Position numbers and translations under genes: made by a program. A DNA stretch of 64,000 nt from Bacteroidota bacterium (lineage in GTDB: Bacteria > Bacteroidota > Bacteroidia > AKYH767-A > OLB10): NCBI GenBank assembly GCA_031421935.1, contig JANOPQ010000185.1, forward strand, positions 11,914 through 75,913. The letters run 5' to 3'. The notes under the pieces are model-generated. The model was not told where the DNA came from, searched no databases, and saw only the letters and a list, made by a program, of their open reading frames with translations. Positions 3,209-58,720 of this stretch are shown in pieces (the first letter of the stretch is position 1; the number at the start of each line of letters is the position of its first letter).

Positions 3209-3224
3209 TTCGATTTTAGAAATT

Positions 3225-28574: not shown

Positions 28575-28582
28575 TATCTTTG
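28575..28582 (+). promoter_or_regulatory. Bacteroidota-type -7 promoter element (TAnnTTTG) upstream of the short glgA
   Basis: TATCTTTG lies 31 nt upstream of the ATG at 28613, with a TTTG about 23 bp further upstream. It overlaps the TTG start used by the ORF track, which argues for the ATG start. Confidence 0.4.
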
Positions 28583-28612
28583 CGTAAAATTATCTATATC
28601 GTGAAGAAAGCT

Positions 28613-29440: not shown

Positions 29441-29504
29441 TCCCCTTTTTTATTCTTTGCGTTTAGCTTCTGTATCTTTTATAAATTCCTTTACCTTCGC
29501 CCCC

Positions 29505-30800: not shown

Positions 30801-30803
30801 GCC

Positions 30804-32639
30804 ATGTGTGGAATTGTTGCCTATATTGGTAAGCAAGATGCTTATCCCATCATCATTAAAGGACTTCAGCGCCTCGAGTATAGAGGGTATGACAGTGCCG
30901 GTGTTGCTTTGTTAAATGGAAGTTTGAATGTATATAAAAAAGCAGGAAAAGTAAGTGATCTTGCTGCTTACGTAAAAGATAAAAATTTGGCAGGTGTCGT
31001 AGGCATGGGGCATACACGTTGGGCTACACATGGTGAGCCAAACGATAGAAATGCGCATCCTCATTTTTCTCAGTCAAAAGATTTTGCAATCATCCACAAT
31101 GGAATTATTGAAAACTATGCATCCATAAAAGCAGAATTAATCAAGCAAGGTCATACTTTCGAGAGTGATACTGACACCGAAGTATTGGTGCATTTGATTG
31201 AAGAAATATATGTGAAGGCAGATGTTGCACTCGAAGAGGCAGTACGTTTAGCATTAGGTGAAGTGGTAGGAGCTTATGCCATTGTTATTTTATCTAAAAA
31301 CGATCCTAATAAATTAATTGCTGCCCGTAAAGGTTCTCCAATCGTAGTTGGAATTGGTAAGGATGAATTTTTTGTTGCTTCCGATGCTACACCCATCGTT
31401 GAGTATACTAAAAACGTTGCATATTTAAACGACGGTGAAGTAGCAGTTATCTCCGATGGAAAACTAACTGTGAAAACCATCGGTAATGAAATTAAAATTC
31501 CGTTTGTTCAAGAATTGGAAATGAAACTCGAGGCACTGGAAAAAGGTGGCTACGAACATTTCATGTTGAAGGAAATTTATGAGCAACCACGCTCCATTGC
31601 TGATAGTATGCGCGGTCGATTTGATAGTCGCAATGGCACATTGAAGTTAGGTGGCTTACGTGAATTCGAGACGAAAATTGTAAATGCGAAACGAATTATT
31701 ATTATTGCTTGTGGTACATCATGGCATGCCGGAATGGTTGCTGAATATTTGATTGAAGATTTAGCGCGGATACCTGTGGAGGTTGAGTATGCTTCCGAAT
31801 TTCGTTACCGCAACCCCGTTATATACGAAGATGATGTGGTCATTGCGATTTCACAGAGTGGAGAGACTGCCGATACTTTAGCAGCAATCGAAATGGCAAA
31901 GTCGAAGGGCGCAACTATTTTTGGAGTATGTAATGTCGTAGGATCAAGTATTCCACGCGCAACACATGCGGGTTCTTATACACATGCGGGACCTGAAATT
32001 GGAGTGGCTTCTACCAAAGCATTTACAGCGCAAGTAACGGTGCTCACTTTATTAGCATTACAAATTGCACACAAACGTGGATCCATTGCTGAATCACGCT
32101 TCCGTCAAATATTAAATGAGCTTGAAGCCATTCCACAGAAAGTAGAAAAAGCTTTGCAGTCGAATGATAAAATTTTAGCCATCGCTCAAGAGTATAAAAA
32201 CGCTAGAAATTTCTTATACTTAGGTAGAGGATATGGATTTCCAGTAGCATTAGAAGGCGCTTTGAAGTTGAAAGAGATTTCATACATCCATGCTGAAGGT
32301 TATCCTGCTGCAGAGATGAAGCATGGTCCCATTGCTTTGATAGATGCAGAAATGCCTGTCGTAGTGATTGCAACCAAGCACGGATCTTATGAGAAGGTGG
32401 TGAGCAATATTCAGGAAGTGAGAGCACGTAAAGGAAAAATTATTGCCATCGTAACAGAGGGGGATACACAAGTGAAGGAACTTGCCGATTACGTTATAGA
32501 AATTCCAGAGACGGATGAGATTTTAGTTCCTTTAGTGAGCGTTGTTCCATTACAACTCTTAGCATATCATATTGCGGTATTGCGTGGATGTAATGTAGAT
32601 CAGCCACGAAATTTGGCGAAGAGTGTAACAGTGGAGTAA
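30804..32639 (+). CDS. glmS: glutamine--fructose-6-phosphate aminotransferase
   Basis: MCGIVAYIG N-terminal nucleophile, two SIS domains, C-terminal ...VE. Confidence 0.95.
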   Translation: MCGIVAYIGKQDAYPIIIKGLQRLEYRGYDSAGVALLNGSLNVYKKAGKVSDLAAYVKDKNLAGVVGMGHTRWATHGEPNDRNAHPHFSQSKDFAIIHNGIIENYASIKAELIKQGHTFESDTDTEVLVHLIEEIYVKADVALEEAVRLALGEVVGAYAIVILSKNDPNKLIAARKGSPIVVGIGKDEFFVASDATPIVEYTKNVAYLNDGEVAVISDGKLTVKTIGNEIKIPFVQELEMKLEALEKGGYEHFMLKEIYEQPRSIADSMRGRFDSRNGTLKLGGLREFETKIVNAKRIIIIACGTSWHAGMVAEYLIEDLARIPVEVEYASEFRYRNPVIYEDDVVIAISQSGETADTLAAIEMAKSKGATIFGVCNVVGSSIPRATHAGSYTHAGPEIGVASTKAFTAQVTVLTLLALQIAHKRGSIAESRFRQILNELEAIPQKVEKALQSNDKILAIAQEYKNARNFLYLGRGYGFPVALEGALKLKEISYIHAEGYPAAEMKHGPIALIDAEMPVVVIATKHGSYEKVVSNIQEVRARKGKIIAIVTEGDTQVKELADYVIEIPETDEILVPLVSVVPLQLLAYHIAVLRGCNVDQPRNLAKSVTVE

Positions 32640-32664: not shown

Positions 32665-33321
32665 ATGAAAAAAATACTTGCTTACTCTGGTGATCAAGAT
32701 TCATTAGGAAATTCATTTCGGATAAAACGTTTTAAGTTTCTTGCGGCTAAATTGGAAAAATTTTCAAAGCCTATTTCCATTCTAGACGTTGGCGGAACCG
32801 TGAAATATTGGGAGGCTAGAGGGTTTCAAAATAATAATGATTATAAGATAACCATCATTAATATTGAACCTTCTGATTCACCTTATTCGAATATCGAAGT
32901 GTTTAAGGGCGATGCTACCAACCTTTCTAATTTTCAGGATAAATCTTTCGACCTATCGTTTAGTAATTCAGTAATCGAACATTTAACACATGTAGAGAAA
33001 CAAGTGATGATGGCTAATGAAATAGTCCGATTAGGTAAGTATTATTTTGTTCAAACTCCGAATCGTTATTTTCCTATTGAACCACATTTCCTTTTTCCAT
33101 TTTTTCAGTTTCTTCCTTACTCAGTAAAGTATTTTATTCTCACCAAAACAAAATTGAGTAGAGGCCGTAAACGTACGCCAGAAAGAGCAGCAACCTATAT
33201 CAAGGAAATTCGATTGCTTACTACATCCGAAATGTTGAAGTTATTTCCTGGTTGTAAAGTGTACTTTGAAAAAGTAGCAGGGTTGGTTAAATCAATTACT
33301 GTACATAATTTGCCAGATTAA
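32665..33321 (+). CDS. class I SAM-dependent methyltransferase-like protein
   Basis: ILDVGGTVKYW (motif I-like, GxG) and acidic motif II. Weak call. Confidence 0.45.
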   Translation: MKKILAYSGDQDSLGNSFRIKRFKFLAAKLEKFSKPISILDVGGTVKYWEARGFQNNNDYKITIINIEPSDSPYSNIEVFKGDATNLSNFQDKSFDLSFSNSVIEHLTHVEKQVMMANEIVRLGKYYFVQTPNRYFPIEPHFLFPFFQFLPYSVKYFILTKTKLSRGRKRTPERAATYIKEIRLLTTSEMLKLFPGCKVYFEKVAGLVKSITVHNLPD

Positions 33322-33336
33322 ATACATCCCTAAAAT

Positions 33337-34509
33337 TTAGTGTAATAAATCCGAAAATTGTTTGCCGATAGTAATCGGGTTAAATCTGTTTTCAATACTT
33401 TTCAATGCGGCAGCACTAAGTGTGTGGCTTAGATTTGGGTTATTGATGAGCAAACTTATTTTTTGTGCAAGCTCCTGTGTATTTTCCGACTGAAAGAGAA
33501 GTCCATTTTCTTCCGATGTAATTATTTCGGCGTTTGGGGATAGGTCAGAGGCAATAATCGTTTTTGGAAAGCTCATCGCCATCAATAAGACGCCACTTTG
33601 GTAAATGCGCGTATATGGCAAAATTACTGCATGGGAAATTGAAAATAAGTAATCGCGCTCTTCATCGGTGATATGTCGAATGATAGGGATTACTCGGTCT
33701 TTTATATTGAGTACTGTAATGATTTCTTCATAGCGTTCCCAATTTTCGTCACGTACTCTTCCTGCAATGATAACTTTGAATTTTGAAGAAGTTTGGGTGA
33801 TTGCTTCCAATAAAATATCTAATCCTTTCACCTTTTTAATTTGTCCAAAAAACAAGAAAATCGGTGTTTTTTCTTTCAAACAAATTTGTATAGCGGGATG
33901 AAGTTGTAATGGAAGTTCGCTATTCGTTTTCAATTTCTCCAATGCCTCTGGTGCATCATGATACGTACTAAATAAATGACGGAAGTGCACGTGCGGAATA
34001 ACATGCGTCGATTTTTCCAAGGTAGGAGGTAATGATTTTAGTAACTCCTTTTTGCAAAAATCATTATGTACGATGCGCATATGTGGTAATTTTCCAATCA
34101 CGGTCTTTCTCACGAAGGGCAAGGTAATCGTATCTAAACTTTCGATATCATGTACGATAGCGCAGAGTTGAAAACCCATCAGGCGCGTGATACCAAACGT
34201 TACTAAGTCAAATATTCCTGCTCTGAAAACGTGAACAATAATCCAATCGCATTGATTTTCTTTACACTTACGAAGAGCTTTAATAAATCCAAAAAAATTA
34301 CTTGAGATGGCTTTTATTTTGGATACCCCAGTATTTAAAAAAACATGGTTTATATTTACGACATGAGCAGATAGCGTGAAGTTGGAATATAAATCAACAC
34401 GACAAGTATCACTTTGTATTCCTGAAAGCAATAATAAATCATAATGATCCATACCAGCTTTTATGCCAACGGGATCGATAAGTGCTATGCGTTTCCTTTT
34501 TTTCTCCAC
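33337..34509 (-). CDS. glycosyltransferase family 4 (GT-B)
   Basis: C-terminal EX7E-like region (SDLSPNAEIITSEENGLLF) and overall GT4 layout. Confidence 0.65.
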   Translation of the reverse strand: MEKKRKRIALIDPVGIKAGMDHYDLLLLSGIQSDTCRVDLYSNFTLSAHVVNINHVFLNTGVSKIKAISSNFFGFIKALRKCKENQCDWIIVHVFRAGIFDLVTFGITRLMGFQLCAIVHDIESLDTITLPFVRKTVIGKLPHMRIVHNDFCKKELLKSLPPTLEKSTHVIPHVHFRHLFSTYHDAPEALEKLKTNSELPLQLHPAIQICLKEKTPIFLFFGQIKKVKGLDILLEAITQTSSKFKVIIAGRVRDENWERYEEIITVLNIKDRVIPIIRHITDEERDYLFSISHAVILPYTRIYQSGVLLMAMSFPKTIIASDLSPNAEIITSEENGLLFQSENTQELAQKISLLINNPNLSHTLSAAALKSIENRFNPITIGKQFSDLLH

Positions 34510-34563: not shown

Positions 34564-35751
34564 TTAATTTTTATTTAATTTGAAATAATTGACCATCATT
34601 TTCCATCCTTCTGTTTCTTTTCCTACATATTCAATTTTCCATTCTTTGGAATCTCCTTTTTTGTTTACTACATCATAATAGGGATCCCAGAAATCGGTGT
34701 CACATTGAAACCCATACATGGCCCATGCCCATTTGTTTTCATCTATGATGTCAACAACATCTTTCAGCCAAACGTTTCCTCCATCCGACCATTTGATACT
34801 TTGAAATTCTCCTACAAAAATAAGATTTCCTGTCTTCGCTTCAAATGCTTTTAGCTTGGCAAGTTTTTCTCTAAGTACTTTTTTATCCCAAAAAACTTGA
34901 TCTACAAATCCAGGATATTTTAAACCGCGTGGTCGTTTTTTTACACCTTGATGTGTAAAGGGATCAGGAAGATACATGTGTACTCCGTAGATTAATTTTT
35001 TGTCCTTAATGTCATACCCATCAAACTTATTGTAGTTGTTTGGTTTGCCCCATGGACCAGGTGTTAAAAGGAAGTAGCGTTGTGTATCGTATTTTCTTAT
35101 GGTTAACAAAATCCTTTTGTAAAAGTCCTCAATATTATCAGGACTTTTCATTCTTCCAAGGGATTCAACAGCGGGTTCCCCAATTACTTCGTACGCGGTG
35201 AGTTCAGTCCCTCTGTCTTGATATCTTTTTACAATGATATCTACCAAATTAATGGCACTATCTACTAAGCTTTTATTTTGCCAGAAATCAGGATGCTTAT
35301 CATCAATATCTGAATTTGGATCAAGATTAAGATTGTTAAATGCAATCATGCAAGTAATACCCTGACTCTTTGCAACATCCAAAATACTATCTGTCCAATT
35401 CAATTCTTTGTAAAACGCAAGCGTTGGATTGATTTTCTCCCGCTTAGCCCTTTTATCTCCTTTGATGAAAATTCTAACAAAATTTACATGTATAGATTTT
35501 AGATAAACAAGATCTTCAGGCTTTGTTTTTTTAGACTCGACTGAAACGCCTCTCCATGGCCAGTTAATCGGTAAATCTTTTTGTTGAGTTTCAACTTCTA
35601 GAACGTTGGGTGGTGAGCCCTGATCTGAGTCGACAGATACTTTATTGTCTGATAGGATGGGAACCTCGCTGTTGGTTTTCTTTGCTTCTTGATTGCATGA
35701 ATTTTGCATGTTTAGAACACATAGACTTAAAAGAAGAATTACTTTAATCAT
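34564..35751 (-). CDS. secreted glycoside hydrolase, GH5-like
   Basis: Signal peptide. (beta/alpha)8-type pattern with a candidate acid/base VIGEPAV and nucleophile FVGEFQ. Embedded in the glycan-biosynthesis cluster. Confidence 0.45.
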   Translation of the reverse strand: MIKVILLLSLCVLNMQNSCNQEAKKTNSEVPILSDNKVSVDSDQGSPPNVLEVETQQKDLPINWPWRGVSVESKKTKPEDLVYLKSIHVNFVRIFIKGDKRAKREKINPTLAFYKELNWTDSILDVAKSQGITCMIAFNNLNLDPNSDIDDKHPDFWQNKSLVDSAINLVDIIVKRYQDRGTELTAYEVIGEPAVESLGRMKSPDNIEDFYKRILLTIRKYDTQRYFLLTPGPWGKPNNYNKFDGYDIKDKKLIYGVHMYLPDPFTHQGVKKRPRGLKYPGFVDQVFWDKKVLREKLAKLKAFEAKTGNLIFVGEFQSIKWSDGGNVWLKDVVDIIDENKWAWAMYGFQCDTDFWDPYYDVVNKKGDSKEWKIEYVGKETEGWKMMVNYFKLNKN

Positions 35752-35901: not shown

Positions 35902-37179
35902 CTATTTTGAAGACACTATTTCGTTTCGAAAAGGGTATACATAAAATCTATAATAGTAAATGACCCCAATAAAGAATGCGGGTGTTCCAATAAACTTAAT
36001 GTTATTCGCTGCACTTTGCATGTCAAGGAAAATAAATAGGAGGGTGTAGATACAAGTTAATATAAAGGAGTCGTTAATTTTTTTCATCTGTAAAACCCAT
36101 ATAAAACAGGCAATATAAGGGATGTAATAAAAGAGTGTCCCAATAACACCAAATACATAAAGGTTGCCAAGTATTCCGATATCTGCAGGGTAAAAATAAC
36201 GATGAAATTGTAAATATCCACCATTCCACTGCGAGCTAAGAAAGCCATTTCCTAGCCAAGGATGTTCACTAATCCCTTTTAATGCTACCTCAGCTTCATA
36301 ATACCTGATATTTGTCGAATACTCGGTGGTTTGGTCTCCAGTGAAAATCGTAAACGCATTTCCAAATAGTTCTGAATAATGCTCAATGAATTCTGGAGCG
36401 AATAATTGTAGAAGCACAAGCACTGAACTAATAAATAAAATACCGATTATTGAGTATAAAAATATTTTAGTGACTTTTAGATATTTAAAATAAAAAAGAA
36501 GTAATACGAAGACAAGAATTAAAATTTGTGATCGGTCTTGTCCATAAATCAGGAAGAAGGTAAAGGACAAAAGTACCGTTATTAAATGTCTTGATTTGTT
36601 ATCTTTTAAGAAGGTAATAGCAGCATAAATCAAAAGGCCAGCAGTGGCTCCATTAGGAAATTCGTAAATCCACCCTTTGTAACCGGTTAGTTTTACGAAC
36701 TCTGTTCCAGAAAAGATAGAGGGATCTACAAAAACGTAAAAAAAGTACATAATGAAAAGTATAATGTACATTGAATATACAAAGTATTTTTCCAATTGAT
36801 CTAAATTTATCCAGTTTCGTTTTAGTGAAACTACTACGCCAATTGCACCTAATATATAGTAGTGATATCGTTGTGAAAGCAATCCATAAGTGTAGGGCTG
36901 ATTAAAAACAAGTTGTGCTTGTGCAGCATTGATAAAAGGATAAATCAACAGGGCAATCAGTATCATAAACAAAAGATTGAGCTTCCCATTCATAAGCTGT
37001 CTAGTGGTATCATATAAAAAGATAGTCACCAATATCAACAGAAACAGTATGGACAGAAATTCATTGACTATGCCCATTGGTATTCTTGAAATCACTCTAA
37101 AGCAAACCATAAAATACAAGAAAGAAAAAAATATCAGCAATATTTTTTTGGTGAGGGATATTATTTTAGGGACAATCAT
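35902..37179 (-). CDS. Wzy-like O-antigen/EPS polymerase or ligase-family membrane protein
   Basis: 425 aa, about 11 TM helices with a large periplasmic loop. Position between sulfotransferases and the GH5-like gene. Confidence 0.45.
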   Translation of the reverse strand: MIVPKIISLTKKILLIFFSFLYFMVCFRVISRIPMGIVNEFLSILFLLILVTIFLYDTTRQLMNGKLNLLFMILIALLIYPFINAAQAQLVFNQPYTYGLLSQRYHYYILGAIGVVVSLKRNWINLDQLEKYFVYSMYIILFIMYFFYVFVDPSIFSGTEFVKLTGYKGWIYEFPNGATAGLLIYAAITFLKDNKSRHLITVLLSFTFFLIYGQDRSQILILVFVLLLFYFKYLKVTKIFLYSIIGILFISSVLVLLQLFAPEFIEHYSELFGNAFTIFTGDQTTEYSTNIRYYEAEVALKGISEHPWLGNGFLSSQWNGGYLQFHRYFYPADIGILGNLYVFGVIGTLFYYIPYIACFIWVLQMKKINDSFILTCIYTLLFIFLDMQSAANNIKFIGTPAFFIGVIYYYRFYVYPFRNEIVSSK

Positions 37180-37189
37180 TTAAAGCAAT

Positions 37190-38068
37190 TTATTTGCACC
37201 AATGTGAAAGGTTGGCACCAGTGATTTTTTCTATCTCTTGAATTTCTGGTTTGTATAAATCATTAAGAAATTCTTTGGTAGAACGGGTCATCGTCGGAAG
37301 ATTGTTTTTGGAAAACAATTTTGATTTTAGTTGACCCCTTTTTTTTTGATCTAAGAAAAGGGAAACAAACTTTCGAAATTGTTCCTGTTTGTAGAGCCAT
37401 CTCACTAAGGGTGATTTTGCGCTAGTTGTTACATTTCTTTGCTCTAAATTCCCTGTTGAACTTGTATGGTTTATACCAAGAAATTGAGAGAGTCTTTTTA
37501 ATTCTTTATCCGGATTCGCAATTAAATGGTCATGAATGAATATTAATAGTTGATCTTTTGGAAAGACTGATAGGAATCTTTTAATTTGTTCAGGATAATG
37601 ACTAAGTCGAATATATTGTTGATAGTATAGTTTCAGCTTCTCATCTTTTTCTCCTTCAAAAACAATTTTGTCAAATGGTACTGTGACCAAATTTAAACTG
37701 TAATCCATGAGGTAGTGAGAGAAAGCTCTCTGCACAGGATCACGTAATGAAATTATAATTTTCGACTTTGGGTTAAATTGATGTATTTTTTCTGCAACCC
37801 CAGGATAAAATAAATAGGAAACACTACATTCTCCAGCAATTAAATTACCTTCCTTTGCTTGGAAAAGCTGAAGATATTCATCTTGTGTTGTTACGTTTTT
37901 CTTTTTATAATATAATGCTTGTGCTTCAATTTGTTCTTTAGAGAAATAATTAGGCTCTTTATCTGAACTCATACATACCTGAGGATGATTGGATAGATAG
38001 GCATATAATGCAGTAGTGCCAGCTTTAGGCGAACCTATAATAAAGAAATCAGGTTTGATCTGTTTCAT
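37190..38068 (-). CDS. PAPS-dependent sulfotransferase (paralog 1 of 4)
   Basis: 5'-PSB motif GSPKAGTTAL and 3'-PB region ISLRDPVQRAFSHY. Confidence 0.75.
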   Translation of the reverse strand: MKQIKPDFFIIGSPKAGTTALYAYLSNHPQVCMSSDKEPNYFSKEQIEAQALYYKKKNVTTQDEYLQLFQAKEGNLIAGECSVSYLFYPGVAEKIHQFNPKSKIIISLRDPVQRAFSHYLMDYSLNLVTVPFDKIVFEGEKDEKLKLYYQQYIRLSHYPEQIKRFLSVFPKDQLLIFIHDHLIANPDKELKRLSQFLGINHTSSTGNLEQRNVTTSAKSPLVRWLYKQEQFRKFVSLFLDQKKRGQLKSKLFSKNNLPTMTRSTKEFLNDLYKPEIQEIEKITGANLSHWCK

Positions 38069-38076
38069 ACATAAAC

Positions 38077-39048
38077 TTACTTAATAACTAACCAATGCGA
38101 AAGATCGCGGTCTAGTTCTTTACTTAATGCTTCAATTTCATTCGCAAAAATCGAATTTAACCATTTTCGGTCTTCTATGTTCATTTTTTCTTGACCATCC
38201 TTCTTGAAGAATAAAGCCTTTACCCTAGGTTGTATGGAATTAGGAAGAACTCGAAATATTTTTCTCTTCAATCCTATTTGTGTTAGAAAGTGTATAAATT
38301 TAATGTTCTTTGGAACTTTGGCTTCATTGTGTTTTTCTTTAAAGTTGATATTTATTTCTGAATCTAAATTCAGAAACTCGAACACGTCTTTTATTACTTT
38401 TGGTGTGTTTGCTTTTAAATCATCTAAGAGAAGTATCTTAAACTGATCTGGACCAAAATTTCTTTTGAAGCGTTTAATCTGTTCGTTATACATTCCCAAT
38501 TCAATATATAAATGTGATTTGCCCCATCCCTTATTCGGTTTCAAAATATCTTGCTCTAGTTCTTTTTTGAAAGGCAAAACAGCACGACCATCTCGTATGT
38601 TTGCTAAATAGTGAGAGTAAGCTCTATCAACTGGATTTCGAAGTATAGCGATCAATTTTACCTCAGGTAATGTTGATTTAATATTTTCGGACGCTACTTT
38701 ACTATAAAGATATGAGTTGCTTATCTCTCCAATTCGCTTCTTTCCTTCAGCAAATTTAAATAATAGTTTGTAATCTTCTTCTAACTGTACATAGGCTCCC
38801 CATTGATCCTCTTTCATATCGCCACGCACATATTTCGATACGTTTAGATTTTTCATTTTTTCGTGGTGTTTATATTCCGGACTAAACTCTTCTGGATGGA
38901 TATCATTGGAAAAATAATTCGGTTCCTTAATTGGACTCATATACACATCTTTGTGCTGTTTCAGATAATGATAAAGGGAAGTAGTCCCACATTTCGCAGC
39001 TCCAACCACCAAAAAATTGGGTAGTATATTTGTATTTATTTCAACCAT
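38077..39048 (-). CDS. PAPS-dependent sulfotransferase (paralog 2 of 4)
   Basis: GAAKCGTTSL and ILRNPVDRAYSHY motifs. Confidence 0.75.
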   Translation of the reverse strand: MVEINTNILPNFLVVGAAKCGTTSLYHYLKQHKDVYMSPIKEPNYFSNDIHPEEFSPEYKHHEKMKNLNVSKYVRGDMKEDQWGAYVQLEEDYKLLFKFAEGKKRIGEISNSYLYSKVASENIKSTLPEVKLIAILRNPVDRAYSHYLANIRDGRAVLPFKKELEQDILKPNKGWGKSHLYIELGMYNEQIKRFKRNFGPDQFKILLLDDLKANTPKVIKDVFEFLNLDSEININFKEKHNEAKVPKNIKFIHFLTQIGLKRKIFRVLPNSIQPRVKALFFKKDGQEKMNIEDRKWLNSIFANEIEALSKELDRDLSHWLVIK

Positions 39049-39989
39049 TCGCTTAGATCTCTATTTATTAATTTTGATAATTGTAAGACATCTTCCTTCA
39101 ATAGAATTTTTATTTCTTGAAGAACTTCTTCGTCTTTTTTATTGATTTCCGATTTTTTATAAAGGATTTTTAAGATGTTTTTTTTCAACTTAGTATGTTC
39201 CAACAAATTTCTTGCTTTAATTCTAATAAAATCTGATTTTAAAAGAAGTGAAGTTAACTTGTTTGAGGGTACAACAGATTCGTTTTTAAATTCAGGTTCG
39301 TTCGGAACAAAGTCATCTTTTACATGTAGAAATTGGAATAAAGTCTTTATTGTCTCCTCTTTATTTTTGTATAGATCTTTTTGAAGTAATACCAGAACAT
39401 TTTCTTTTGGAAAAACATCAAGATATCTTTTTACTTGCAAGTAATATTGACCAAGCTCTAAGTAGAGAGAGCTGCTTCCCCAACCTTTAGGATCAGCTAT
39501 TTTGTCTTTTTCTAGGGCTTCACTAAAAGAGTCTTGGGTAAACCCAAGTTTAAGATCCATCTTATAGTGTGAATAAGCCCTGCTTGAAGGTTCACGTAGA
39601 ATGATAATTATTTTTGCTTTCTGGTTAAACTCGAAAATAGCTTTAGCTGCAACTTCTGAGTAGAGGTAGGAGGGACTTGCTTCACCTTTAATTTGTCTGG
39701 GACCTGCAGGTGTAAACAGCTGAAGATATTGATGCAAATCCCTAATGTATGCCCGGTGAATAGTGCGCTTCATTCCATTTTTGAAAAACTGATCAATATT
39801 TTCGGCCTTTATTCTGTTTTTAACACTTTGTCTTAAATTTTCTAAATTGATATCCGTGGAAAAAAAATTAGGTTCTTTAATGGGTGCCATATAAATTTCA
39901 GGATGCTGATTCAAATAATGAAAAAGCGAGGTGGTTCCTGACTTAGCAGCCCCTACAATGAAAAAATTCGGTTGGTTAGTTTCAATCAT
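39036..39989 (-). CDS. PAPS-dependent sulfotransferase (paralog 3 of 4)
   Basis: GAAKSGTTSL and ILREPSSRAYSHY motifs. Confidence 0.75.
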   Translation of the reverse strand: MIETNQPNFFIVGAAKSGTTSLFHYLNQHPEIYMAPIKEPNFFSTDINLENLRQSVKNRIKAENIDQFFKNGMKRTIHRAYIRDLHQYLQLFTPAGPRQIKGEASPSYLYSEVAAKAIFEFNQKAKIIIILREPSSRAYSHYKMDLKLGFTQDSFSEALEKDKIADPKGWGSSSLYLELGQYYLQVKRYLDVFPKENVLVLLQKDLYKNKEETIKTLFQFLHVKDDFVPNEPEFKNESVVPSNKLTSLLLKSDFIRIKARNLLEHTKLKKNILKILYKKSEINKKDEEVLQEIKILLKEDVLQLSKLINRDLSEWLK

Positions 39990-39993
39990 ATCT

Positions 39994-40899
39994 TTATTTT
40001 AGCCAACTGGATAAATCACGATTGATTAATTGTTGTGTTCTGATGATATCGTTTCTGTAAAAATTCAATAGATCTTCTCTTAGTTTTGCATCAAGAATTA
40101 ATTTGTTTTCACCTTGTTTCGATGGTTTTCTAAATTGATGCATTATTTTTCTCCTCGTTTTTTCTGCAATCAAAAAATGAGTAATTGGCTTCAATAATGT
40201 TTTTACATGGTTATTTTGAAAGAGATATTTAAACCAGAAATTATGTTGTTGTGGATCTGAAATATTGTATTTTACGGAAGTGTCTGGAATAATAGAGCCG
40301 TCCACATTTATAAATTTGAACAACTCCTGCATAATTTCTACAGGCTGTTTGGTGAGTTCTTCTTGTAATATCACTTTTACTTTGGTGAAATGTTGTTGAA
40401 AAGCAGCAATACCATCTGCATACAAACCCAATCGCTTGTATTGCCACATAAAATCCCAGTTCAATACGGCACGATTCGCTTCTTCTTCTAATGCTGATTC
40501 AAGGGATAGATCTTCTTTATCCATTCTTGTAAAATGTTTGTAGCCGCTAAGGAGTCGATCAATTGGTTGTCGGATAACAATGATTATCGGAATATCTCCC
40601 AGTGTTTTTTTGATATTTGGAATGGCTGTATCATGATAGTGAAGATAACAAGTAGACACTTCACCAATTGCACCTCCTTGACATTTGGAGTAAAGTTGAT
40701 TGTATTTATCCTCAGTAAAAATGATGCGAGAACTTTCTCTTCTTCCACGCTCATCTTCCGATTGATTTTTATATAAATCAGATATAAAGAAAAAGGTTTC
40801 TTTTTTTGGAATACACACTTCAGGATGTTGTTCTAGATAATAGAACAACGATGTGGTTCCACATTTTGCAACACCAGCAACAAGGAAATTTGGTTTCAT
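39994..40899 (-). CDS. PAPS-dependent sulfotransferase (paralog 4 of 4)
   Basis: GVAKCGTTSL and VIRQPIDRLLSGY motifs. Confidence 0.7.
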   Translation of the reverse strand: MKPNFLVAGVAKCGTTSLFYYLEQHPEVCIPKKETFFFISDLYKNQSEDERGRRESSRIIFTEDKYNQLYSKCQGGAIGEVSTCYLHYHDTAIPNIKKTLGDIPIIIVIRQPIDRLLSGYKHFTRMDKEDLSLESALEEEANRAVLNWDFMWQYKRLGLYADGIAAFQQHFTKVKVILQEELTKQPVEIMQELFKFINVDGSIIPDTSVKYNISDPQQHNFWFKYLFQNNHVKTLLKPITHFLIAEKTRRKIMHQFRKPSKQGENKLILDAKLREDLLNFYRNDIIRTQQLINRDLSSWLK

Positions 40900-42230
40900 A
40901 ATGAATCAGTGGATGTATTATTCGATCGAGTTAAGCCTGGAATATAGATGGAAAGGAATCCAAATTTTTTATAGACATATAAACAGCCAGCAAAATTTTG
41001 AACAATCTTTGCCGACGCAGAAGCAATGGCAGCTCCCGTAATACCAATTCGAGGCACTAGAATAATGTTAAGCGTAATACTTGTAAATGCAGCGAAAAGA
41101 ATGATGGTATTGTATGGTTTTTGATGCCCTGTCATTTGCAATAGTATCCCAACTGAGCCAGTAATGGAGCTAAAGAAATTTCCAATGGAGAGTATAATTA
41201 ACGCCGTGCTGGCTTGTTCAAATTCTTTTCCAAAAAAGGAAAGTATCCATTCTGGAAAGATAATGATCAATACGGTAAATGGTAGGGTTGCGTAAAAGAG
41301 CATTTTAGTGGATGTAAAAATGGAATCGCGTAGTTTCGAGAAATCATTCTTGCTGTGATATTCGGCAAAAGTGGGACCTTGAATGGCATTGATGGCCATT
41401 AATATTATTGCGGACGCAGAAGCCATTTTAAAAGCGGTATCATATAATCCTACTTCAAGTTCTGTCCTAAAAATGCCAATTACTAAATTGTCGATCCAGT
41501 TTAAAATAAAAAAGATGGAGCCAGTGATCATCATAGGAAGAGATTCTAATGCCATCTCCTTCATTGATGTTGTTTCAACAACTGCAACTTCTTTTATTCG
41601 ACTGTATTTATACCATGCAATACTATATAATAATAGGACAAGAATGCATGAAATCATATATCCAAGTGTAGGGCTAATGTTTAGCGCAAAATAATATCCA
41701 ATAAAAATAAAGGCTACGTTGAATAAAGGAATGATCGCTTTATAAAGAGTGAAACCAATCATGTTTTTCATACCACGAAATGCAGCAGCATGAATATTAA
41801 TAAACACAAATGGCGCTAATGCAAAACACATTACTTTTAGATGTGTTGTTAATTGCGGTTTGTGAAATACTGCATTCGCTAAATATTCAGCGGTGACAAA
41901 CAGCAATAATGAAAGAAGCACCGAGCTTATGGCTGTAATTTTGATGGATGTGATAAACGCCGATTTAATAACTTCTGGTCGATCAGCTGCTTTAGCAGCT
42001 GCGACTTTTCTAGTGAGTAGATTGTCTAAGCCCAACAATCCAAGAATGGCCAACAATTGCAGTACCGTGAACGATAATGTAAAACTTCCCAAGGCGGTTG
42101 GCCCTAACATCCGTGCCACAACAAAAACAAAAAGATACTGAGTTATCATCCCTCCAGCTTTCACCGAAAGTGCAATGCCACCTTTTTCTAGTAGTAAGGA
42201 TGATTCCTTTTGATTGCCCTTTTTACTCAT
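40896..42230 (-). CDS. Wzx-like oligosaccharide flippase (MOP superfamily)
   Basis: 444 aa, about 12 TM helices; polysaccharide-biosynthesis-protein family pattern; 4-nt overlap with the first sulfotransferase. Confidence 0.65.
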   Translation of the reverse strand: MSKKGNQKESSLLLEKGGIALSVKAGGMITQYLFVFVVARMLGPTALGSFTLSFTVLQLLAILGLLGLDNLLTRKVAAAKAADRPEVIKSAFITSIKITAISSVLLSLLLFVTAEYLANAVFHKPQLTTHLKVMCFALAPFVFINIHAAAFRGMKNMIGFTLYKAIIPLFNVAFIFIGYYFALNISPTLGYMISCILVLLLYSIAWYKYSRIKEVAVVETTSMKEMALESLPMMITGSIFFILNWIDNLVIGIFRTELEVGLYDTAFKMASASAIILMAINAIQGPTFAEYHSKNDFSKLRDSIFTSTKMLFYATLPFTVLIIIFPEWILSFFGKEFEQASTALIILSIGNFFSSITGSVGILLQMTGHQKPYNTIILFAAFTSITLNIILVPRIGITGAAIASASAKIVQNFAGCLYVYKKFGFLSIYIPGLTRSNNTSTDSL

Positions 42231-42311
42231 ATCTTCAAAGGCAAAGATGACTATTTTTCCTTCTATAAGTGAGTGTAATTCCTGTTTCTCTTACGAGATT
42301 TCAACCACTAT

Positions 42312-42344
42312 AAAAAGAAAAAAGAGGCCGGTTTTGCCGACCTC
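42312..42344 (-). terminator. orphan minus-strand terminator-like hairpin
   Basis: On the minus strand, gaggtcgg-caaaa-ccggcctc followed by TTTTTTCTTTTT. No minus-strand ORF lies upstream of it. Confidence 0.4.
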
Positions 42345-42850
42345 CTTGGAACTAATGAAAAGTATAAAAAAATGACAATTTGTTATTTATATTTTGGAAA
42401 TGTGATATATTGCGACAAATTTGATTTTCAAATTGCTGTGGAGCAACAAGTTAAGGTTCTATTTTGCTCGGTTCTTTGAATAAGTAAGCTAGGATCTAGG
42501 CATTCTTAAGAGGAGTGATGAATTGCAAATCAGTTAAAGAGTTTAATTTTTATAGGAGGCTGAAGGATTTTATTAACGTAATGAAGTGCCGTTTTTTGAT
42601 TTAATAATTTTTACAAAGAAGAGAAGGCAAAGTGAATTTTAGCTTATGCTAGTATTAAATTGAAATAAACTTTTGGGTGTGTTATTCATGTTACAGGCGG
42701 TTGTTAACATTAATTTAAAAGAGAGTTTATTTAATCAATCGGTTTTACAATTTGGTAATGGTAAGATAATTTGAAAAGTATTCATTTCGGATTTCTGGTT
42801 TCTACTTTTGCATTCAATAAAATTCTAAACTTCTCATCGCAGCTGAAATC

Positions 42851-44956
42851 ATGAAAAAATTTACCATCTTATTCTTGTCCTTCATATTATTGTACCAATT
42901 GGGAAGTAGCCAAAATGGTTTGGAAGGGGTCATTGTAGAAAAATATTATATTTCTAATGCTGCTGATGCAGCCGGAAGTTCTGGTGTGTTACCAACTGGA
43001 TCTACTACCTATCGCATTTTTATTGATTTGCTGCCAGGTTATACATTTCAAGCTGCATACGGTGTTCCTAATCATGAACTTCGTTTCCAAACTACTACTT
43101 CTTTTTTCAACAATGAAGATTACGGTGCTACCACACCTACTTTTAGTAAAACAAATGCTAGAAATAATACCGTAATGTTAGATTCTTGGTTTAGTGGCGG
43201 AGCCTCTTGTGGAGGTAATTTTGGTATTTTGAAACCAGAAGATGGAGTAGCAGGTGGAACCAATGTTATTAATGCAAATGGAATTTTAGCAAACAACGAC
43301 CCTCTCGCAGGTATTCCTTTAACTGCACAGGATGGAATTTATACAGCTGTAACTCCTTCTGTAACCGTACTCGGTTTTACTCCAGCTCAGTTAGATGTGA
43401 TCGACGCAATTAGTAATGTTGGAAATTTAATTTCTACAACGAATGCTTCATGGGCTGTTTTGGGTGGTTCAACAGGCCCAATTCCATCTGTAAATAAAAT
43501 ACTAATAGCACAGTTTACGACGAATGGTACATTTTCTTTTAAATTAAATATTCAAATTGGAACTCCTATGCCTGGTGTTTCTCAGAATTTTGTTGCTGAA
43601 AATGCAACCGGAAACGAAATTCTTTTCCCTGCATTAATTTATTCCTCTGTTTCTCTTCCTACAGCAGCAGTATCTATCGCAACCAATGTCCCATTCCCGG
43701 TTTGTACCGGAACATCAGTGGTTTTTACCGCTACTCCTGTAAATGGTGGTGCTACCCCTTCTTATCAATGGAAGAGGAATGGCGCTAACGTAGGTACCAA
43801 TAGCCCTACGTATACTACTTCCGGACTTGTTGCCAACAATGTCATTACCTGCGTAATGACTTCCAGTATTGCTGGGGCGCTGAATAATCCGGCTACGTCA
43901 AATGCGATCACAGCACAAATAATTGCAAAACCTGTAGCCAATATTGTATCTACCGGACCTACCACCTACTGCTCCAGTGCGAATGCCTGTACATTATCAA
44001 CTACGGCTGTAGCGGGTGACACGTATTTATGGTTTAAAGGGTCTACAAGCATTGCCAATTCTAACAGTCCCACGTATGTTCCAAACTCTACTACTTCTAA
44101 AACGTACAAAGTACAAGTAACAAATAGTGGTGGTTGTAGCAAAACATCCAGCACCGTAAGTATTACAGTAAATCCGTTACCGGTTGCAACGGTAACCATT
44201 TCCGGACCTACTACGTTTTGTAAAGGCTCAAATGCTTGTACGCTGACAGCGAACAGTGGCGCAGGACTTACTTACCAATGGAAAAAAGGAAGCGTTAATG
44301 AGGCTGGAGCTACCGGAATTTCTTTTCAACCTAATGCTACAAGCACTGGTTATAAAGTTCAAGTCACCAATGCAAATGGTTGTTCTAAAACTTCTAGTGC
44401 AACAGCTATAATCGCTAACGCACTTCCAACTGCAACAATTACCCCACAAGGTCCTACTACTTTTTGTAGTGGTGACAGCGTAGTTTTAAAGGCTAATAGC
44501 GGGGCTGGATTAACTTATCAGTGGATTAAAGGCGTTATACCACAAGCCGGTCAAACGTCAATTAATTACACAGCTAAATCACAAGCTTCTTATAAAGTAA
44601 CTGTAACGAATGCTAATGGTTGTACAAAAAATTCATCATCGGTTTCAATAACTGTTAATTGTCGTGAAGGGGATTCATTCGGAATTTCTGATGGAAATGA
44701 AAGTCTTTCTACTTATCCAAATCCAACGAATGGTCCATTCACAATAAATTATTATAACAATGAATTAATTTATACTGATGCACAAATAGTAATTCTAGAT
44801 GTTTTAGGTCGAGTGATTTATACGGAGGAAGTTGAAATTGTTGATGGAGTATTTAACAAAGAACTTTCGTTGGAGAACCCATTAGTGAATGGAATGTATT
44901 TTGTTTCCTTAAACTATAGTGGAAAGGGAATTACCAATAAGTTCTTGGTTGATTAA
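42851..44956 (+). CDS. T9SS cargo protein: conserved N-domain (paralog A1) + 4 SprB-like Ig repeats + type-A CTD
   Basis: Signal peptide, then GLEGVIVEKYYIS N-domain shared with 4 other genes. Repeats with C.G....L.A.SGAGLTYQW.KG pattern. C-terminal YPNPTNGPFTI...MYFVSL...KFLVD. Confidence 0.75.
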   Translation: MKKFTILFLSFILLYQLGSSQNGLEGVIVEKYYISNAADAAGSSGVLPTGSTTYRIFIDLLPGYTFQAAYGVPNHELRFQTTTSFFNNEDYGATTPTFSKTNARNNTVMLDSWFSGGASCGGNFGILKPEDGVAGGTNVINANGILANNDPLAGIPLTAQDGIYTAVTPSVTVLGFTPAQLDVIDAISNVGNLISTTNASWAVLGGSTGPIPSVNKILIAQFTTNGTFSFKLNIQIGTPMPGVSQNFVAENATGNEILFPALIYSSVSLPTAAVSIATNVPFPVCTGTSVVFTATPVNGGATPSYQWKRNGANVGTNSPTYTTSGLVANNVITCVMTSSIAGALNNPATSNAITAQIIAKPVANIVSTGPTTYCSSANACTLSTTAVAGDTYLWFKGSTSIANSNSPTYVPNSTTSKTYKVQVTNSGGCSKTSSTVSITVNPLPVATVTISGPTTFCKGSNACTLTANSGAGLTYQWKKGSVNEAGATGISFQPNATSTGYKVQVTNANGCSKTSSATAIIANALPTATITPQGPTTFCSGDSVVLKANSGAGLTYQWIKGVIPQAGQTSINYTAKSQASYKVTVTNANGCTKNSSSVSITVNCREGDSFGISDGNESLSTYPNPTNGPFTINYYNNELIYTDAQIVILDVLGRVIYTEEVEIVDGVFNKELSLENPLVNGMYFVSLNYSGKGITNKFLVD

Positions 44957-45003
44957 TGTACATTTATTAGCATAAATTTCAAAAAGTTTAATTCAAGTTA
45001 GTA

Positions 45004-46110
45004 ATGAAAAAGTATTGTTGGTGTTATTTGTTTTTTTGTTTTATATTGAATTCAAATGCAAATGCACAAAAAGGGTTGGAGAATATTATAGTGGAGAAGT
45101 ATTATATTTCTACAGCTGCCGATACAATAGGAACAGAGCTAGGAGGGTATCTTCCTATTGGCTCTGTTACTTATCGTGTGTATGCCGACTTAACTCCTGT
45201 TCATCGACTTCAAGCCATTTATGGGGAAGCCCAACATGAATTAAAAATTGCTACTACAACTCGTTTTTTTAATTGTGCAAAAAATGATGGAAAGTCATCC
45301 ACTGACATAGAACCTTCTTTTCTTAAAGAAAGCACTTTGCTGTTGGATTCATGGGTCAGTGTAGGTGCTGCATGCTTAGATTATCAAGCTGTGTTGAAAT
45401 CAATGGATGATTCGCTTCCCACTTTTGTTGAAAGTAATGAACTGAATATTTTGAGAAATGAAGAAAAGGATCTAGGTATTCCATTGACAATAGTAGATGG
45501 AATGAAGAAGTTGAAACTACAACCAGGTCCTGTGTTTTTCAATTTCGATAAGGAGTTGCAAAATTTCCAGTATGCATTTCGAGATTCAGTAAATGGCATC
45601 ATCAGTACACTCAATGGTGCTTGGGCTTCTTTTGGTGGATCTGTGGGCCCACACCCTCAAAATCAAGTTTTGTTAGGTCAATTTACTACCGATGGTGTAT
45701 TTAGTTTTGAATTGAATTTGTTAATAGCTATTCCAGGAGGAGGTTCTGAAAAGTTTGTCGCAAAAAATCCGGTAGATAGCGAATTTGTGTTTCCAGCTTT
45801 AATTTATACTTCTTCACCTAACAATAAGTCGCCTCAAATCTTGTTGGCTGTTGATCAACAGCAAAAGAAGAAAGGAGTAAGTGCAATTGAATTATTGGCA
45901 ACGGCCAGTGATGAGGATGGAAAAGTAGTAGCTGTCGATTTTTATGTTAATGATAGATTGGTTTATACAGATTCTACTTTTCCGTTTGCATTTAGCTATA
46001 ATGGAAATTCAAAGGATGCCATAGTATCAGCTTCTGCCATAGACGATAAGGGAACTAAATGCAGATCTAAAAATATATTTCTTTCTGGTACTATTTCTCA
46101 GCACGATTAA
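45004..46110 (+). CDS. secreted protein: conserved N-domain (paralog A2) + C-terminal Ig-like domain; no CTD
   Basis: Signal peptide + GLENIIVEKYYIS N-domain. C-terminal Ig-like module (ASDEDGKVVAVDFYVNDRLVYTDSTFPFAFSY). Confidence 0.65.
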   Translation: MKKYCWCYLFFCFILNSNANAQKGLENIIVEKYYISTAADTIGTELGGYLPIGSVTYRVYADLTPVHRLQAIYGEAQHELKIATTTRFFNCAKNDGKSSTDIEPSFLKESTLLLDSWVSVGAACLDYQAVLKSMDDSLPTFVESNELNILRNEEKDLGIPLTIVDGMKKLKLQPGPVFFNFDKELQNFQYAFRDSVNGIISTLNGAWASFGGSVGPHPQNQVLLGQFTTDGVFSFELNLLIAIPGGGSEKFVAKNPVDSEFVFPALIYTSSPNNKSPQILLAVDQQQKKKGVSAIELLATASDEDGKVVAVDFYVNDRLVYTDSTFPFAFSYNGNSKDAIVSASAIDDKGTKCRSKNIFLSGTISQHD

Positions 46111-46301
46111 TAACCAGGTTTGTTAAATTATTGTTTTCAATTGGTACCAATTTTGGTATTCCTTAACTCAAAGTTAATCTTCTTTTAAACAATAATAAAG
46201 GGTAATTGTTGAGTTTTGTCGTCTGATTGCTTCTATACAAAGCAACTGATTTTGGAACTAGTATACTTAACATTATCAATTAATATTTAATACCATTTAT
46301 T

Positions 46302-47390
46302 ATGAAAAAATTAATACTCCTTTCTGGACTTCTCATGACCAGCTTGTTTCTTCAAGCACAAAATGGGTTGGAAAATATCATTGTAGAAAGATACTATGTA
46401 TCGGAGCCAAATGATACAAATGCAAATTCTACTGGAGGTATTCTTCCTGTGGGATCTGTAACCTACCGCATTTATGTGGATATGTTACCAGGATATAAAT
46501 TTCAAGTATGTTACGGAGTTCCAACTCATGAAATGAGAATTGAAACTTCTACTTTGTTTTTTAATAATGAAGATCGTGGCTCTACATCACCTAATTTCTC
46601 CTTTGTGAATGCAGCAAAGAATACCGTAATGCTCGATTCATGGTTGTCAGTCGGAGCAGCATGTAATGGTTATATGGGAGTTTTGAAAACAGAAGATAAT
46701 GGAGTAAATAACATCATTAATAACTTTTCGCCACAGGTGTTGCAAGGTACAGATGCTTCTGCCGGAATTCCATTGACTACGCAAGATGGTTTGATTTTAA
46801 GTGCTCCAGAGCCTTTTAATGAATTAGGTTTGACAAATGATATTATCGTTTTTGATAATCAGAATGATGGTACAAATGGACCTTTGTTTTCAAGTTTTAA
46901 CGGTTCTTGGGTAGCTTTAAATGGAGCTTCAGGTCCTGATACTTCGATTAACAAAGTATTAATAGCGCAAATTACAACCGACGGAACTTTCTGCTTTAAA
47001 TTGAATGTGCAATTACGCTCTCCAATACCTGGTGTTGTTGAAAATTATGTTGCTGACAGCCCAACTGGAAATGAAATTGCTTTTCCAGGTTTACAATATT
47101 GTTCAAATGTTGGAAATCCAGAGTTTGCAGTGGAAGGTCCTGCGTTTAGTTTGTATCCAAATCCAACGCATGATATTTTTAGTATGTGGGTTTTTGCAAG
47201 CAGACAACCTGGAATATACAATTACAAAATTTATTCGATGGATGGAAAGCAGATGTTGAGTAAATCTTTAGGCGTTACTCAAGCTGATGTAATGGAGAAA
47301 GTGGATTTGTCAGCTTATCCTTCTGGAATATATTTTGTGGAACTTTCTGTTGAAGGACACTCTTCTACCAAGAAACTAATTAAAAATTAA
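46302..47390 (+). CDS. T9SS cargo protein: conserved N-domain (paralog A3) + type-A CTD
   Basis: GLENIIVERYYVS N-domain; C-terminal LYPNPTHDIFS...IYFVEL...KKLIKN. Confidence 0.75.
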   Translation: MKKLILLSGLLMTSLFLQAQNGLENIIVERYYVSEPNDTNANSTGGILPVGSVTYRIYVDMLPGYKFQVCYGVPTHEMRIETSTLFFNNEDRGSTSPNFSFVNAAKNTVMLDSWLSVGAACNGYMGVLKTEDNGVNNIINNFSPQVLQGTDASAGIPLTTQDGLILSAPEPFNELGLTNDIIVFDNQNDGTNGPLFSSFNGSWVALNGASGPDTSINKVLIAQITTDGTFCFKLNVQLRSPIPGVVENYVADSPTGNEIAFPGLQYCSNVGNPEFAVEGPAFSLYPNPTHDIFSMWVFASRQPGIYNYKIYSMDGKQMLSKSLGVTQADVMEKVDLSAYPSGIYFVELSVEGHSSTKKLIKN

Positions 47391-50532: not shown

Positions 50533-50543
50533 TTCGCTAGAAT

Positions 50544-51908: not shown

Positions 51909-51909
51909 G

Positions 51910-57869: not shown

Positions 57870-57887
57870 TTGAATTGGGGTTTTGAC

Positions 57888-57923
57888 AAGGCTTCTGGAT
57901 TTTTCCCGAAGCCTTTTTTTTGT
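57888..57923 (+). terminator. intrinsic terminator after the scaffoldin-like gene
   Basis: aaggcttc...gaagcctt 8-bp stem followed by TTTTTTTT. Confidence 0.7.
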
Positions 57924-58023
57924 TATGAAAATTAACATTGAAGTAATTTTAATATTGTCTTAACATCCCCTTGCAACTTAAAAAGTAATTTAGCAGTGTA
58001 TTTTAAATTAAAAAATTCAGTAG

Positions 58024-58623: not shown

Positions 58624-58720
58624 TTAGTTGGGCGTTCTTTTAGTTAACAATTCCCTTACACAAGTATAATTCGCAGTTTACATCAATTTCATTTTGCAGT
58701 AGTAAATTTGTAAGATAGAA

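Follow-up and report, generated by a model that had tools for sequence, protein, structure and literature searches.

A four-sulfotransferase cassette of the Wzx/Wzy type, predicted to make a sulfated surface glycan, in an uncultured Bacteroidota bacterium

Animals and algae are familiar sources of sulfated polysaccharides; in bacteria, the synthesis of such polymers has been assigned to genes in few cases, namely synechan and a few marine gammaproteobacterial capsules. Synechan is the product of xss, a Wzx/Wzy cluster on plasmid pSYSM of Synechocystis sp. PCC 6803, and has been proven genetically and chemically to be a sulfated exopolysaccharide (EPS) (PMC8205485). In the marine bacteria Vibrio sp. 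KMM 8419 and Cobetia marina KMM 1449, sulfotransferase (ST) genes are accompanied by cysN/D/C, cysQ, and a sulfate permease gene, and the polymer has been shown to be sulfated (PMC11641403, PMC11766843). The co-location of STs with genes for 3'-phosphoadenosine 5'-phosphosulfate (PAPS) in a polysaccharide cluster, as in the Vibrio capsule, is regarded as a hallmark of sulfated polysaccharide synthesis (PMC11641403). Here, we analyze a 64-kb stretch of DNA from a Bacteroidota bacterium (contig JANOPQ010000185.1, positions 11,914 to 75,913; hereafter the window), in which four ST genes, STA to STD, lie between a Wzx-type flippase gene and a Wzy-like gene. Together with their neighbors they form an eight-gene operon whose predicted product, with a probability of about 80%, is a sulfated glycan of the cell surface assembled through the Wzx/Wzy pathway. 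A sulfated polysaccharide had been proposed in an initial annotation of the window, and the proposal is supported by the ST evidence, the operon, and a PAPS module in the closest related locus.

The four STs are encoded by adjacent genes on the minus strand, each with PAPS-binding motifs, as first annotated; coordinates, Pfam matches, and alignment agree (Table 1). All four proteins exceed the Pfam gathering scores of Sulfotransfer_1 and/or Sulfotransfer_3 (48–69 bits versus cutoffs of 22–27; E-values of 6e-19 to 2e-12), which is far beyond chance. Residues K15, G17, T18, T19, R109, P111, R114, S117, and Y119 are invariant in the alignment of the four, and so is the K37–E38 pair. Loss of the motifs on careful alignment would mark pseudo-sulfotransferases, and the PAPS-binding residues are kept in all four. 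Pairwise identity, initially described as moderate, is 22–38%, with STD the most divergent of the paralogs. Neither a signal peptide nor a transmembrane segment is found in the four sequences, so the proteins should act in the cytoplasm, where PAPS resides. A search of NCBIfam with the STs returns only partial, sub-threshold matches to NoeE.

A profile of the four STs matches 3RNL over its full length, including the C-terminal helices, with an E-value of 1.5e-73. The same profile matches human NDST1 and 3-O-sulfotransferases (3-OSTs) 1, 3, and 5 with E-values of 1e-15 to 1e-21. In the alignments with NDST1 and 3-OST-3, K15 falls in the 5'-phosphosulfate loop and the RxPxxRxxS motif falls in the 3'-phosphate site. 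E38 aligns with the glutamate of the 3-OST-3 motif AEPHFFD, which we take to be the catalytic base. Among the STs of related loci, K37, E38, R109, P111, and R114 are invariant (63 of 63), K15 is a lysine in 57 of 60, and S117 is a serine in 60 of 63. Pseudo-enzymes are ruled out, because the PAPS-binding and catalytic residues are intact in all four STs and in 57–63 of the 63 relatives.

Structure prediction covered STA (AlphaFold2; pLDDT 80.4, pTM 0.78). When the STA model is compared with the Protein Data Bank (PDB) using Foldseek, the 21 best matches are 3RNL and heparan-sulfate N-sulfotransferase (NST) and 3-OST structures, with E-values of 5.6e-16 to 9.2e-10; the top match is 3RNL (5.6e-16), and 1NST and the 3-OSTs score 6.2e-13 and ~1e-12, respectively. 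Cytosolic SULTs and TPSTs score 1e-6 or weaker, and polyketide sulfotransferases are also far lower. Pfam, motifs, E38, and the STA fold thus concur with the PAPS-type carbohydrate sulfotransferase identity proposed at the outset. Taken together, domain, motif, catalytic-residue, fold, and operon evidence supports the prediction that all four are active, PAPS-dependent carbohydrate STs working on a Wzx/Wzy-assembled glycan.

The cassette runs from 42230 to 33337 in the order wzx, STD, STC, STB, STA, wzy-like gene, GH5 gene, and GT4 gene. Starting at wzx, consecutive genes are spaced by −4, +4, −13, +8, and +10 nt up to the wzy-like gene; wider gaps of 150 nt and 54 nt precede the GH5 and GT4 genes, respectively. 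The G+C content of the cassette is 33.9%, versus 37.1% for the rest of the window. The Wzx, Wzy-like, GH5-like, and GT4 neighbors that had been claimed for the STs are all borne out by Pfam. The Wzy_C protein, which has no match in a PDB sequence search, is predicted to be a polymerase, or possibly a ligase. The GH5 protein contains both catalytic glutamate motifs, and its closest PDB entries are the endoglucanases 8b3y, 8ag9, and 8anx (1e-30); the literature on these structures yields nothing usable on substrate. It is probably exported and may serve in trimming or release of the polymer. The GT4 protein is the sole glycosyltransferase (GT) of the cassette and has weak matches to EPS and O-antigen GT4 equivalogs.

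Table 1 Features of the sulfotransferase cassette and its flanks (positions in the window)
Feature	Position	Strand	Matches and motifs
STA sulfotransferase, 292 aa	37190-38068	minus	Sulfotransfer_1 6.2e-19; KAGTTAL, RDPVQRAFSHY
STB sulfotransferase, 323 aa	38077-39048	minus	Sulfotransfer_1 5.6e-14; KCGTTSL, KEPNYF, RNPVDRAYSHY
STC sulfotransferase, 317 aa	39036-39989	minus	Sulfotransfer_1 6.2e-16; KSGTTSL, KEPNFF, REPSSRAYSHY
STD sulfotransferase, 301 aa	39994-40899	minus	Sulfotransfer_3 2.2e-12, Sulfotransfer_1 7e-08; KCGTTSL, KE, RQPIDRLLSGY
Wzx-type (MOP family) flippase, first operon gene	40896-42230	minus	Polysacc_synt 1.3e-25, Polysacc_synt_3, MatE; ~12 hydrophobic segments
Wzy_C-family polytopic membrane protein	35902-37179	minus	Wzy_C 1.9e-08, 34.7 bits vs 31.7 cutoff; ~10 hydrophobic segments
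GH5 glycoside hydrolase, hydrophobic N-terminus	34564-35751	minus	Pfam Cellulase 1.2e-13; GEP at 191, GEF at 314
GT4 glycosyltransferase, last operon gene	33337-34509	minus	Glycos_transf_1 4.6e-22
Class I methyltransferase, convergent with GT4	32665-33321	plus	Methyltransf_11 4.3e-06
CATCTTTG box, putative promoter element, 11 nt upstream of wzx ATG	42242-42249	minus	nAnnTTTG likeness
Terminator-like hairpin and T-run, ~90 nt upstream of wzx	42321-42347	minus	11 bp stem, 6 GC; dG -17.2 kcal/mol

Relatives of the STs were collected in a scan of one genome per species, and the 80 best loci, ~20 kb each, were examined. At least 573 relatives are found across many phyla. The closest locus, L002, has an identical cassette order (Wzx, STD, STC, STB, STA, Wzy, GH5, GT4) beside GlmS and DUF4270; the cassette proteins are 54–74% identical to those of the window, and GlmS is 91% identical. 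In particular, the L002 orthologs of STD, STC, STB, and the Wzy_C protein are 68%, 70%, 74%, and 71% identical, respectively, and the GT4 orthologs of L002–L004 are 54–57% identical. L002 (CAZHSC010000009.1) is titled 'uncultured Bifidobacterium sp.', which is almost certainly a taxonomic mislabel given the GlmS identity and the DUF4270/glgA-like block; L069, titled 'Bifidobacteriaceae', may be mislabeled too.

In L002, the cassette is linked to genes for PAPS supply. Directly upstream of its wzx, five genes on the same strand encode a transporter, an adenosine 5'-phosphosulfate (APS) kinase, CysD, CysN, and a CysQ-like protein. The transporter is of the SLC13/CitMHS type with TrkA_C domains and matches the sodium:sulfate symporter family. 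The APS kinase match has an E-value of 1.4e-68; CysD, CysN, and the CysQ-like protein belong to the PAPS_reduct, GTP_EFTU, and inositol-monophosphatase families, respectively. The equivalent five genes precede a Wzx-ST-ST-Wzy array in L017. A CysQ-like gene stands before wzx in seven loci, in five of them alone (L008, L009, L010, L011, and L015). The sulfate transporter and cys module upstream of wzx in L002 strongly support PAPS-dependent glycan sulfation. In the single-ST Alicyclobacillus/Bacillota loci L032, L043, and L045, APS-kinase signatures occur within ~3 kb of the ST, as does the ATP-sulfurylase motif GRDHAG in L043 and L045, indicating that the ST–PAPS linkage is not confined to Bacteroidota.

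The cassette recurs with a variable set of STs. It occupies the matching chromosomal position, on the glmS/DUF4270 side, in L002, L003, L004, and L019; the GH5 gene is kept within it in all four, and the ST sets differ in L003, L004, and L019. Across Bacteroidota, wzx, ST, and wzy genes are interleaved in this way at more than 15 loci. More distant loci from metagenome-assembled genomes (MAGs) of Flavobacteriales and Chitinophagales share a core of Wzx, two to three STs, Wzy, a GH-like protein, an STA-clade ST, and GT4. Additional genes in these loci encode GT2s, epimerases, GmhA/GmhB, and a WecA-type priming transferase, and the number of STs reaches six; Wza and Wzc are found in none of them. 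The MAG names suggest that lakes, activated sludge, and seawater are the sources of the relatives.

Most of the 80 loci contain a single ST (51 loci); 12 contain two, 10 contain three, 4 contain four, 2 contain five, and 1 contains six. The initial annotation called four STs in one cluster unusual, which is true in comparison with characterized clusters but not in comparison with the nearest relatives, 17 of 80 loci having at least three STs. A unique arrangement is ruled out by these arrays of three to six STs.

In a neighbor-joining tree, STA, STB, STC, and STD each group with orthologs from other genomes, forming four separate, deeply branching clades. The STD clade includes sequences of L002 and L028, and STC has orthologs in L002, L004, and L017. 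STB has orthologs in L002, L003, L004, L019, and L017 and an identical copy in Logan SRR20217188; exact copies of window proteins are found in one 5.9-kb Logan contig only. The STA clade comprises the ST that adjoins GT4 in many of the Flavobacteriales and Chitinophagales loci. Recent tandem duplication is ruled out by the four deep clades with orthologs in other MAGs, which point to an old set of distinct subfamilies shuffled between genomes rather than to recent amplification. Different positional specificities, suggested from the first for the four enzymes, are plausible because each clade is retained elsewhere.

The variation suggests a serotype-like locus. The interval between glmS and the cargo genes of the type IX secretion system (T9SS) behaves as a variable glycan island, its ST content differing per genome. 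A fifth, more divergent ST family lies between wzy and the hydrolase gene or STA in L003 (~3100-4140), L004 (~6910-7990), L011 (8991-10001), and L015 (8991-10004). The L011 member matches Sulfotransfer_3 with an E-value of 5.8e-26. The family is missing from the window, where the gap between wzy and the GH5 gene is 150 nt.

These data are best explained by the following scheme. A short repeat unit would be built on undecaprenyl (di)phosphate at the cytoplasmic face of the membrane, started by a primer encoded elsewhere and extended by the single GT4. The four soluble cytoplasmic STs would transfer sulfate from PAPS to different hydroxyl or amino positions of the lipid-linked unit. In each ST, the conserved glutamate would serve as the base, with the lysine of K-x-G-T-T and the arginine and serine residues of RxPxxRxxS holding the 5'-phosphosulfate and the 3'-phosphate. 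Wzx would then flip the sulfated unit across the membrane, the Wzy_C protein would polymerize, or ligate, the flipped unit, and the exported GH5 protein would trim or release the polymer. Sulfation is placed before flipping by analogy with the synechan model, where the repeat unit is modified while still linked to the lipid. In this scheme, the acceptor, the order of the steps, and the use of four distinct positions are inferred, as is whether the product is an O-antigen-like chain or free/capsular EPS. Because the related loci contain a WecA-type primer and no Wza or Wzc, an O-antigen-like chain is at least as likely as a capsule.

Several observations weigh against the synthesis of a sulfated glycan by this route. 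First, no cysD/N/C/Q gene is found in the window by Pfam on open reading frames (ORFs) of at least 120 aa or by tblastn with the L002 module (best E-value 0.38). A motif scan for APS kinase, CysN, and CysD finds no signatures there either; these searches thus reveal neither intact PAPS genes nor remnants of them. L004 and L019 likewise have no adjacent cys module. Second, the same Pfam search and tblastn with a WecA-like protein reveal no initiating phosphoglycosyl transferase in the window. A priming transferase is present in the related Flavobacteriales-type loci L007, L008, L010, L011, and L015, and that of the window organism may be encoded elsewhere in its genome. Third, Pfam identifies no Wzz, Wza, or Wzc in the window, and none of the three is among the recurrent neighbors of the related loci. 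Fourth, the histidine that follows the catalytic glutamate of 3-OSTs is replaced with asparagine or phenylalanine in STA–STD, at a position that is variable among the 63 related STs (asparagine in 25 and histidine in 16). Fifth, the cassette has one GT only. Finally, the organism is known only from metagenomes, and the score of the Wzy_C protein is barely over the threshold of a family that is not separable by sequence from WaaL/PglL-type ligases.

The last point allows the Wzy_C protein to be read as a WaaL/PglL-like ligase or oligosaccharyltransferase, which would attach a single short sulfated oligosaccharide, rather than a long polysaccharide, to lipid A-core or to proteins (e.g., T9SS cargo or general targets of O-glycosylation). 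Its sole match, near threshold, is the Pfam family Wzy_C, which is named 'O-antigen ligase'; the single GT and the missing chain-length and export genes in the window and the related loci would suit such a product; and T9SS-cargo genes are conserved neighbors in the window, L004, and L019. Wzx weakly matches the NCBIfam O-glycosylation flippase Oglyco_Wzx, but its score of 26 bits is far under the cutoff of 720. Moreover, Wzx and Wzy_C proteins in one operon are the classic layout of a polymerase system, the synechan equivalent, XssF, is a polymerase, and a dedicated exported GH5 protein fits a polymer better. We therefore consider a ligase improbable.

The lack of PAPS genes in the window raises a further alternative, in which the cassette is intact but idle or decaying, the sulfate-activation module of L002 and L017 having been lost and PAPS with it. 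The window is without the transporter-cysC-cysD-cysN-cysQ set found upstream of L002 wzx, and the hairpin upstream of the window wzx, described below, could be a relic of that module. However, none of the four ST ORFs is truncated and no functional residue is lost, L004 and L019 keep the cassette though an adjacent module is absent, and cysDNC genes commonly lie at another site of the genome, of which 64 kb is only a small sample. An idle or decaying cassette is therefore very improbable. It is hardly credible that the STs act on a non-glycan acceptor such as a lipid, a peptide, or a small molecule and lie between wzx and wzy incidentally: sequence does not reveal the acceptor and the superfamily covers lipids, steroids, tyrosines, and polyketides (the lower Foldseek matches), but the wzx-to-wzy junctions are at most 13 nt with overlapping genes, the interleaving recurs in the Bacteroidota loci counted above, and the closest characterized relatives are all carbohydrate sulfotransferases.

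Two features lie upstream of wzx. The box CATCTTTG resembles what we take to be the Bacteroidota −7 promoter element, TAnnTTTG, and we infer that it is a putative promoter element; its position as a −7 element would imply a very short leader. An nAnnTTTG box just upstream of the annotated or presumed wzx start is common to the window, L002, L004, and L083. A scan for sigma-70 promoters is uninformative, with 43 sites found and 43.6 expected. Farther upstream is the GC-rich, terminator-like hairpin, which has counterparts with a different but paired stem sequence in L004 (~1255-1290; −20.2 kcal/mol), L083 (~1757-1790; −20.1 kcal/mol), and, weaker, L002 (~5697-5745), although the Wzx proteins of the four loci are just 50–69% identical. 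A metagenome scan with Wzx returned only two short contigs, which are informative on the leader hairpin and not on the surrounding genes. A GTTGAAATCT-like motif follows the hairpin in the window, L083, and L002. On the hairpin strand, no gene lies upstream in the window, L004, or L083, and a cysQ-like gene does in L002. No Rfam family is detected in the wzx leader or across the 64-kb window. The hairpin may act as an insulating terminator, may be left over from a lost cys module, or may mark where a small RNA ends.

On the other side of the cassette, the methyltransferase gene is wedged between glmS and the GT4 gene; in L002, L003, and L004, it is missing, and these two genes are direct neighbors. 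The only homolog (39% identity) lies close to the L028 ST array. The gene may be a genome-specific accessory gene whose product may O-methylate the glycan, and it may belong to the cassette. The adjoining block of Glyco_transf_5 (glycogen-synthase-like), DUF4270, and GlmS genes (28580-32639, plus strand) is kept beside the cassette in close relatives; the Glyco_transf_5 gene is seen in L002, L003, and L004, and the L019 locus ends within DUF4270.

The content of the window is that of a Bacteroidota genome: T9SS sorting domains (CHU_C and Por_Secre_tail) are numerous, and a SusC-like receptor and DUF4270 are encoded as well. Genes for T9SS-sorted proteins are dense at 92-3208, 21098-22939, 42851-47390, 50544-51908, 54645-59560, and 63530-63946, and these proteins contain PKD (11), CHRD (4), and Big_7 domains. 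Directly upstream of wzx are genes for two T9SS proteins, whose homologs adjoin the cassette in L004 and L019. At 47443-52701 on the plus strand, a SusC-like TonB-dependent receptor (CarbopepD_reg_2 and Plug) is followed by T9SS-tailed and Fib_succ_major-domain proteins with no SusD, an atypical arrangement resembling a polysaccharide utilization locus. Four ORFs of 199–541 aa (13166-13948, 14512-15270, 52982-54607, and 58024-58623) have no Pfam match at E ≤ 0.001.

The synechan paper calls sulfated EPS exclusive to cyanobacteria (PMC8205485). A study of Shark Bay mats reported no sulfotransferase gene in its Bacteroidetes MAGs, and work on granular sludge stated that bacterial pathways for sulfated glycosaminoglycan (GAG)-like polymers are not known. 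'Sulfated glycosaminoglycan-like' material has been detected chemically in freshwater and wastewater biofilms, its producers and pathways being unknown (PMC10483923). The 4:1 ratio of STs to GTs in the cassette hints at a densely sulfated, GAG-like product. A bolder version of the scheme starts from the four dedicated STs, of the heparan-sulfate NST/3-OST-like clade, and the single GT: the product would be a hypersulfated, heparin-like bacterial polymer assembled by Wzx/Wzy, in which each repeat would be very short, perhaps only a disaccharide, and would bear several sulfates; with the transporter-cysCDNQ module of L002, the cassette would then be the missing genetic basis of the GAG-like biofilm material. 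We regard this version as tentative and rather unlikely.

Uncultured Bacteroidota thus carry a compact, mobile-looking cassette with three to six STs, which in some relatives is joined to a module for sulfate uptake, PAPS synthesis, and recycling of 3'-phosphoadenosine 5'-phosphate. The 9–14 kb gene set is a concrete candidate for heterologous expression. In addition, the four divergent, predicted soluble cytoplasmic carbohydrate STs are attractive for enzymatic sulfation and for the biomanufacturing of heparin-type products, and the cassette offers a marker for sulfated-glycan producers in metagenomes.

Among known systems, the synechan cluster shares with the window an XssA-type ST, Wzx, a Wzy-like protein, and a GT4. 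XssA (pSYSM 40411-41316, assigned by gene order) belongs to the subfamily of the window STs, with the motif KEPNFF, a score of 95 bits against a hidden Markov model (HMM) of the four STs, and 22–25% identity. XssE represents another subfamily and scores 22 bits against the same HMM. The xss cluster has two STs and eight GTs, whereas the window cassette has four STs and one GT. In addition, xss has the priming transferase XssP, the polysaccharide copolymerase XssK, and the regulators XssQ/R/S, none of which occurs near the window cassette (no STAND regulator or two-component pair); conversely, the GH5 gene of the cassette has no counterpart in xss. The hosts also differ, one being a cyanobacterium and the other a member of the Bacteroidota.

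The Vibrio and Cobetia clusters, from Gammaproteobacteria, are of the ABC-transporter (kps) type and have 70–80 genes with one to three dispersed STs, whereas the window has a 9-kb Wzx/Wzy operon with four contiguous STs. Their hallmark of PAPS genes plus STs is shared by L002 and L017 but not by the window copy. The plasmid pAUEa of Aureispira anguillae, a cultured member of the Saprospiraceae, has an uncharacterized cluster with an O-antigen translocase, a Wzy_C protein, and an ST that is 35% identical to STB. This ST is the only one, among five GTs and a priming sugar transferase, and the cluster has no GH5.

At the enzyme level, the closest solved relative is 3RNL from Alicyclobacillus acidocaldarius; its PDB record is titled 'sulfotransferase' and names no substrate or role, and the Alicyclobacillus loci L013, L032, and L034 have one ST each, compared with four in the window. 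Animal NDST1 and HS3ST1/3/5 share with the window STs the fold, the 5'-phosphosulfate-binding loop, the 3'-phosphate-binding RxPxxRxxS motif, and the position of the glutamate, at an identity of ~20–22%. The animal 3-OSTs have histidine after this glutamate where the window STs have asparagine or phenylalanine, and the C-terminal helical region of the window STs and 3RNL is extra relative to the animal enzymes. Furthermore, the animal NDST and 3-OST enzymes are Golgi-lumenal and act on finished chains, whereas the window STs are predicted to be soluble and cytoplasmic and to act, presumably, on lipid-linked units.

A full-text literature search finds no paper joining sulfotransferase, wzx, a sulfated product, and Flavobacteri-. 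By its predicted function, the cassette joins a kind already known, that of Wzx/Wzy clusters for PAPS-dependent sulfated glycans. What sets it apart is its phylum, its compactness, its 4:1 ratio of STs to GTs, and its recurrence in uncultured Bacteroidota, sometimes with a full sulfate-activation module.

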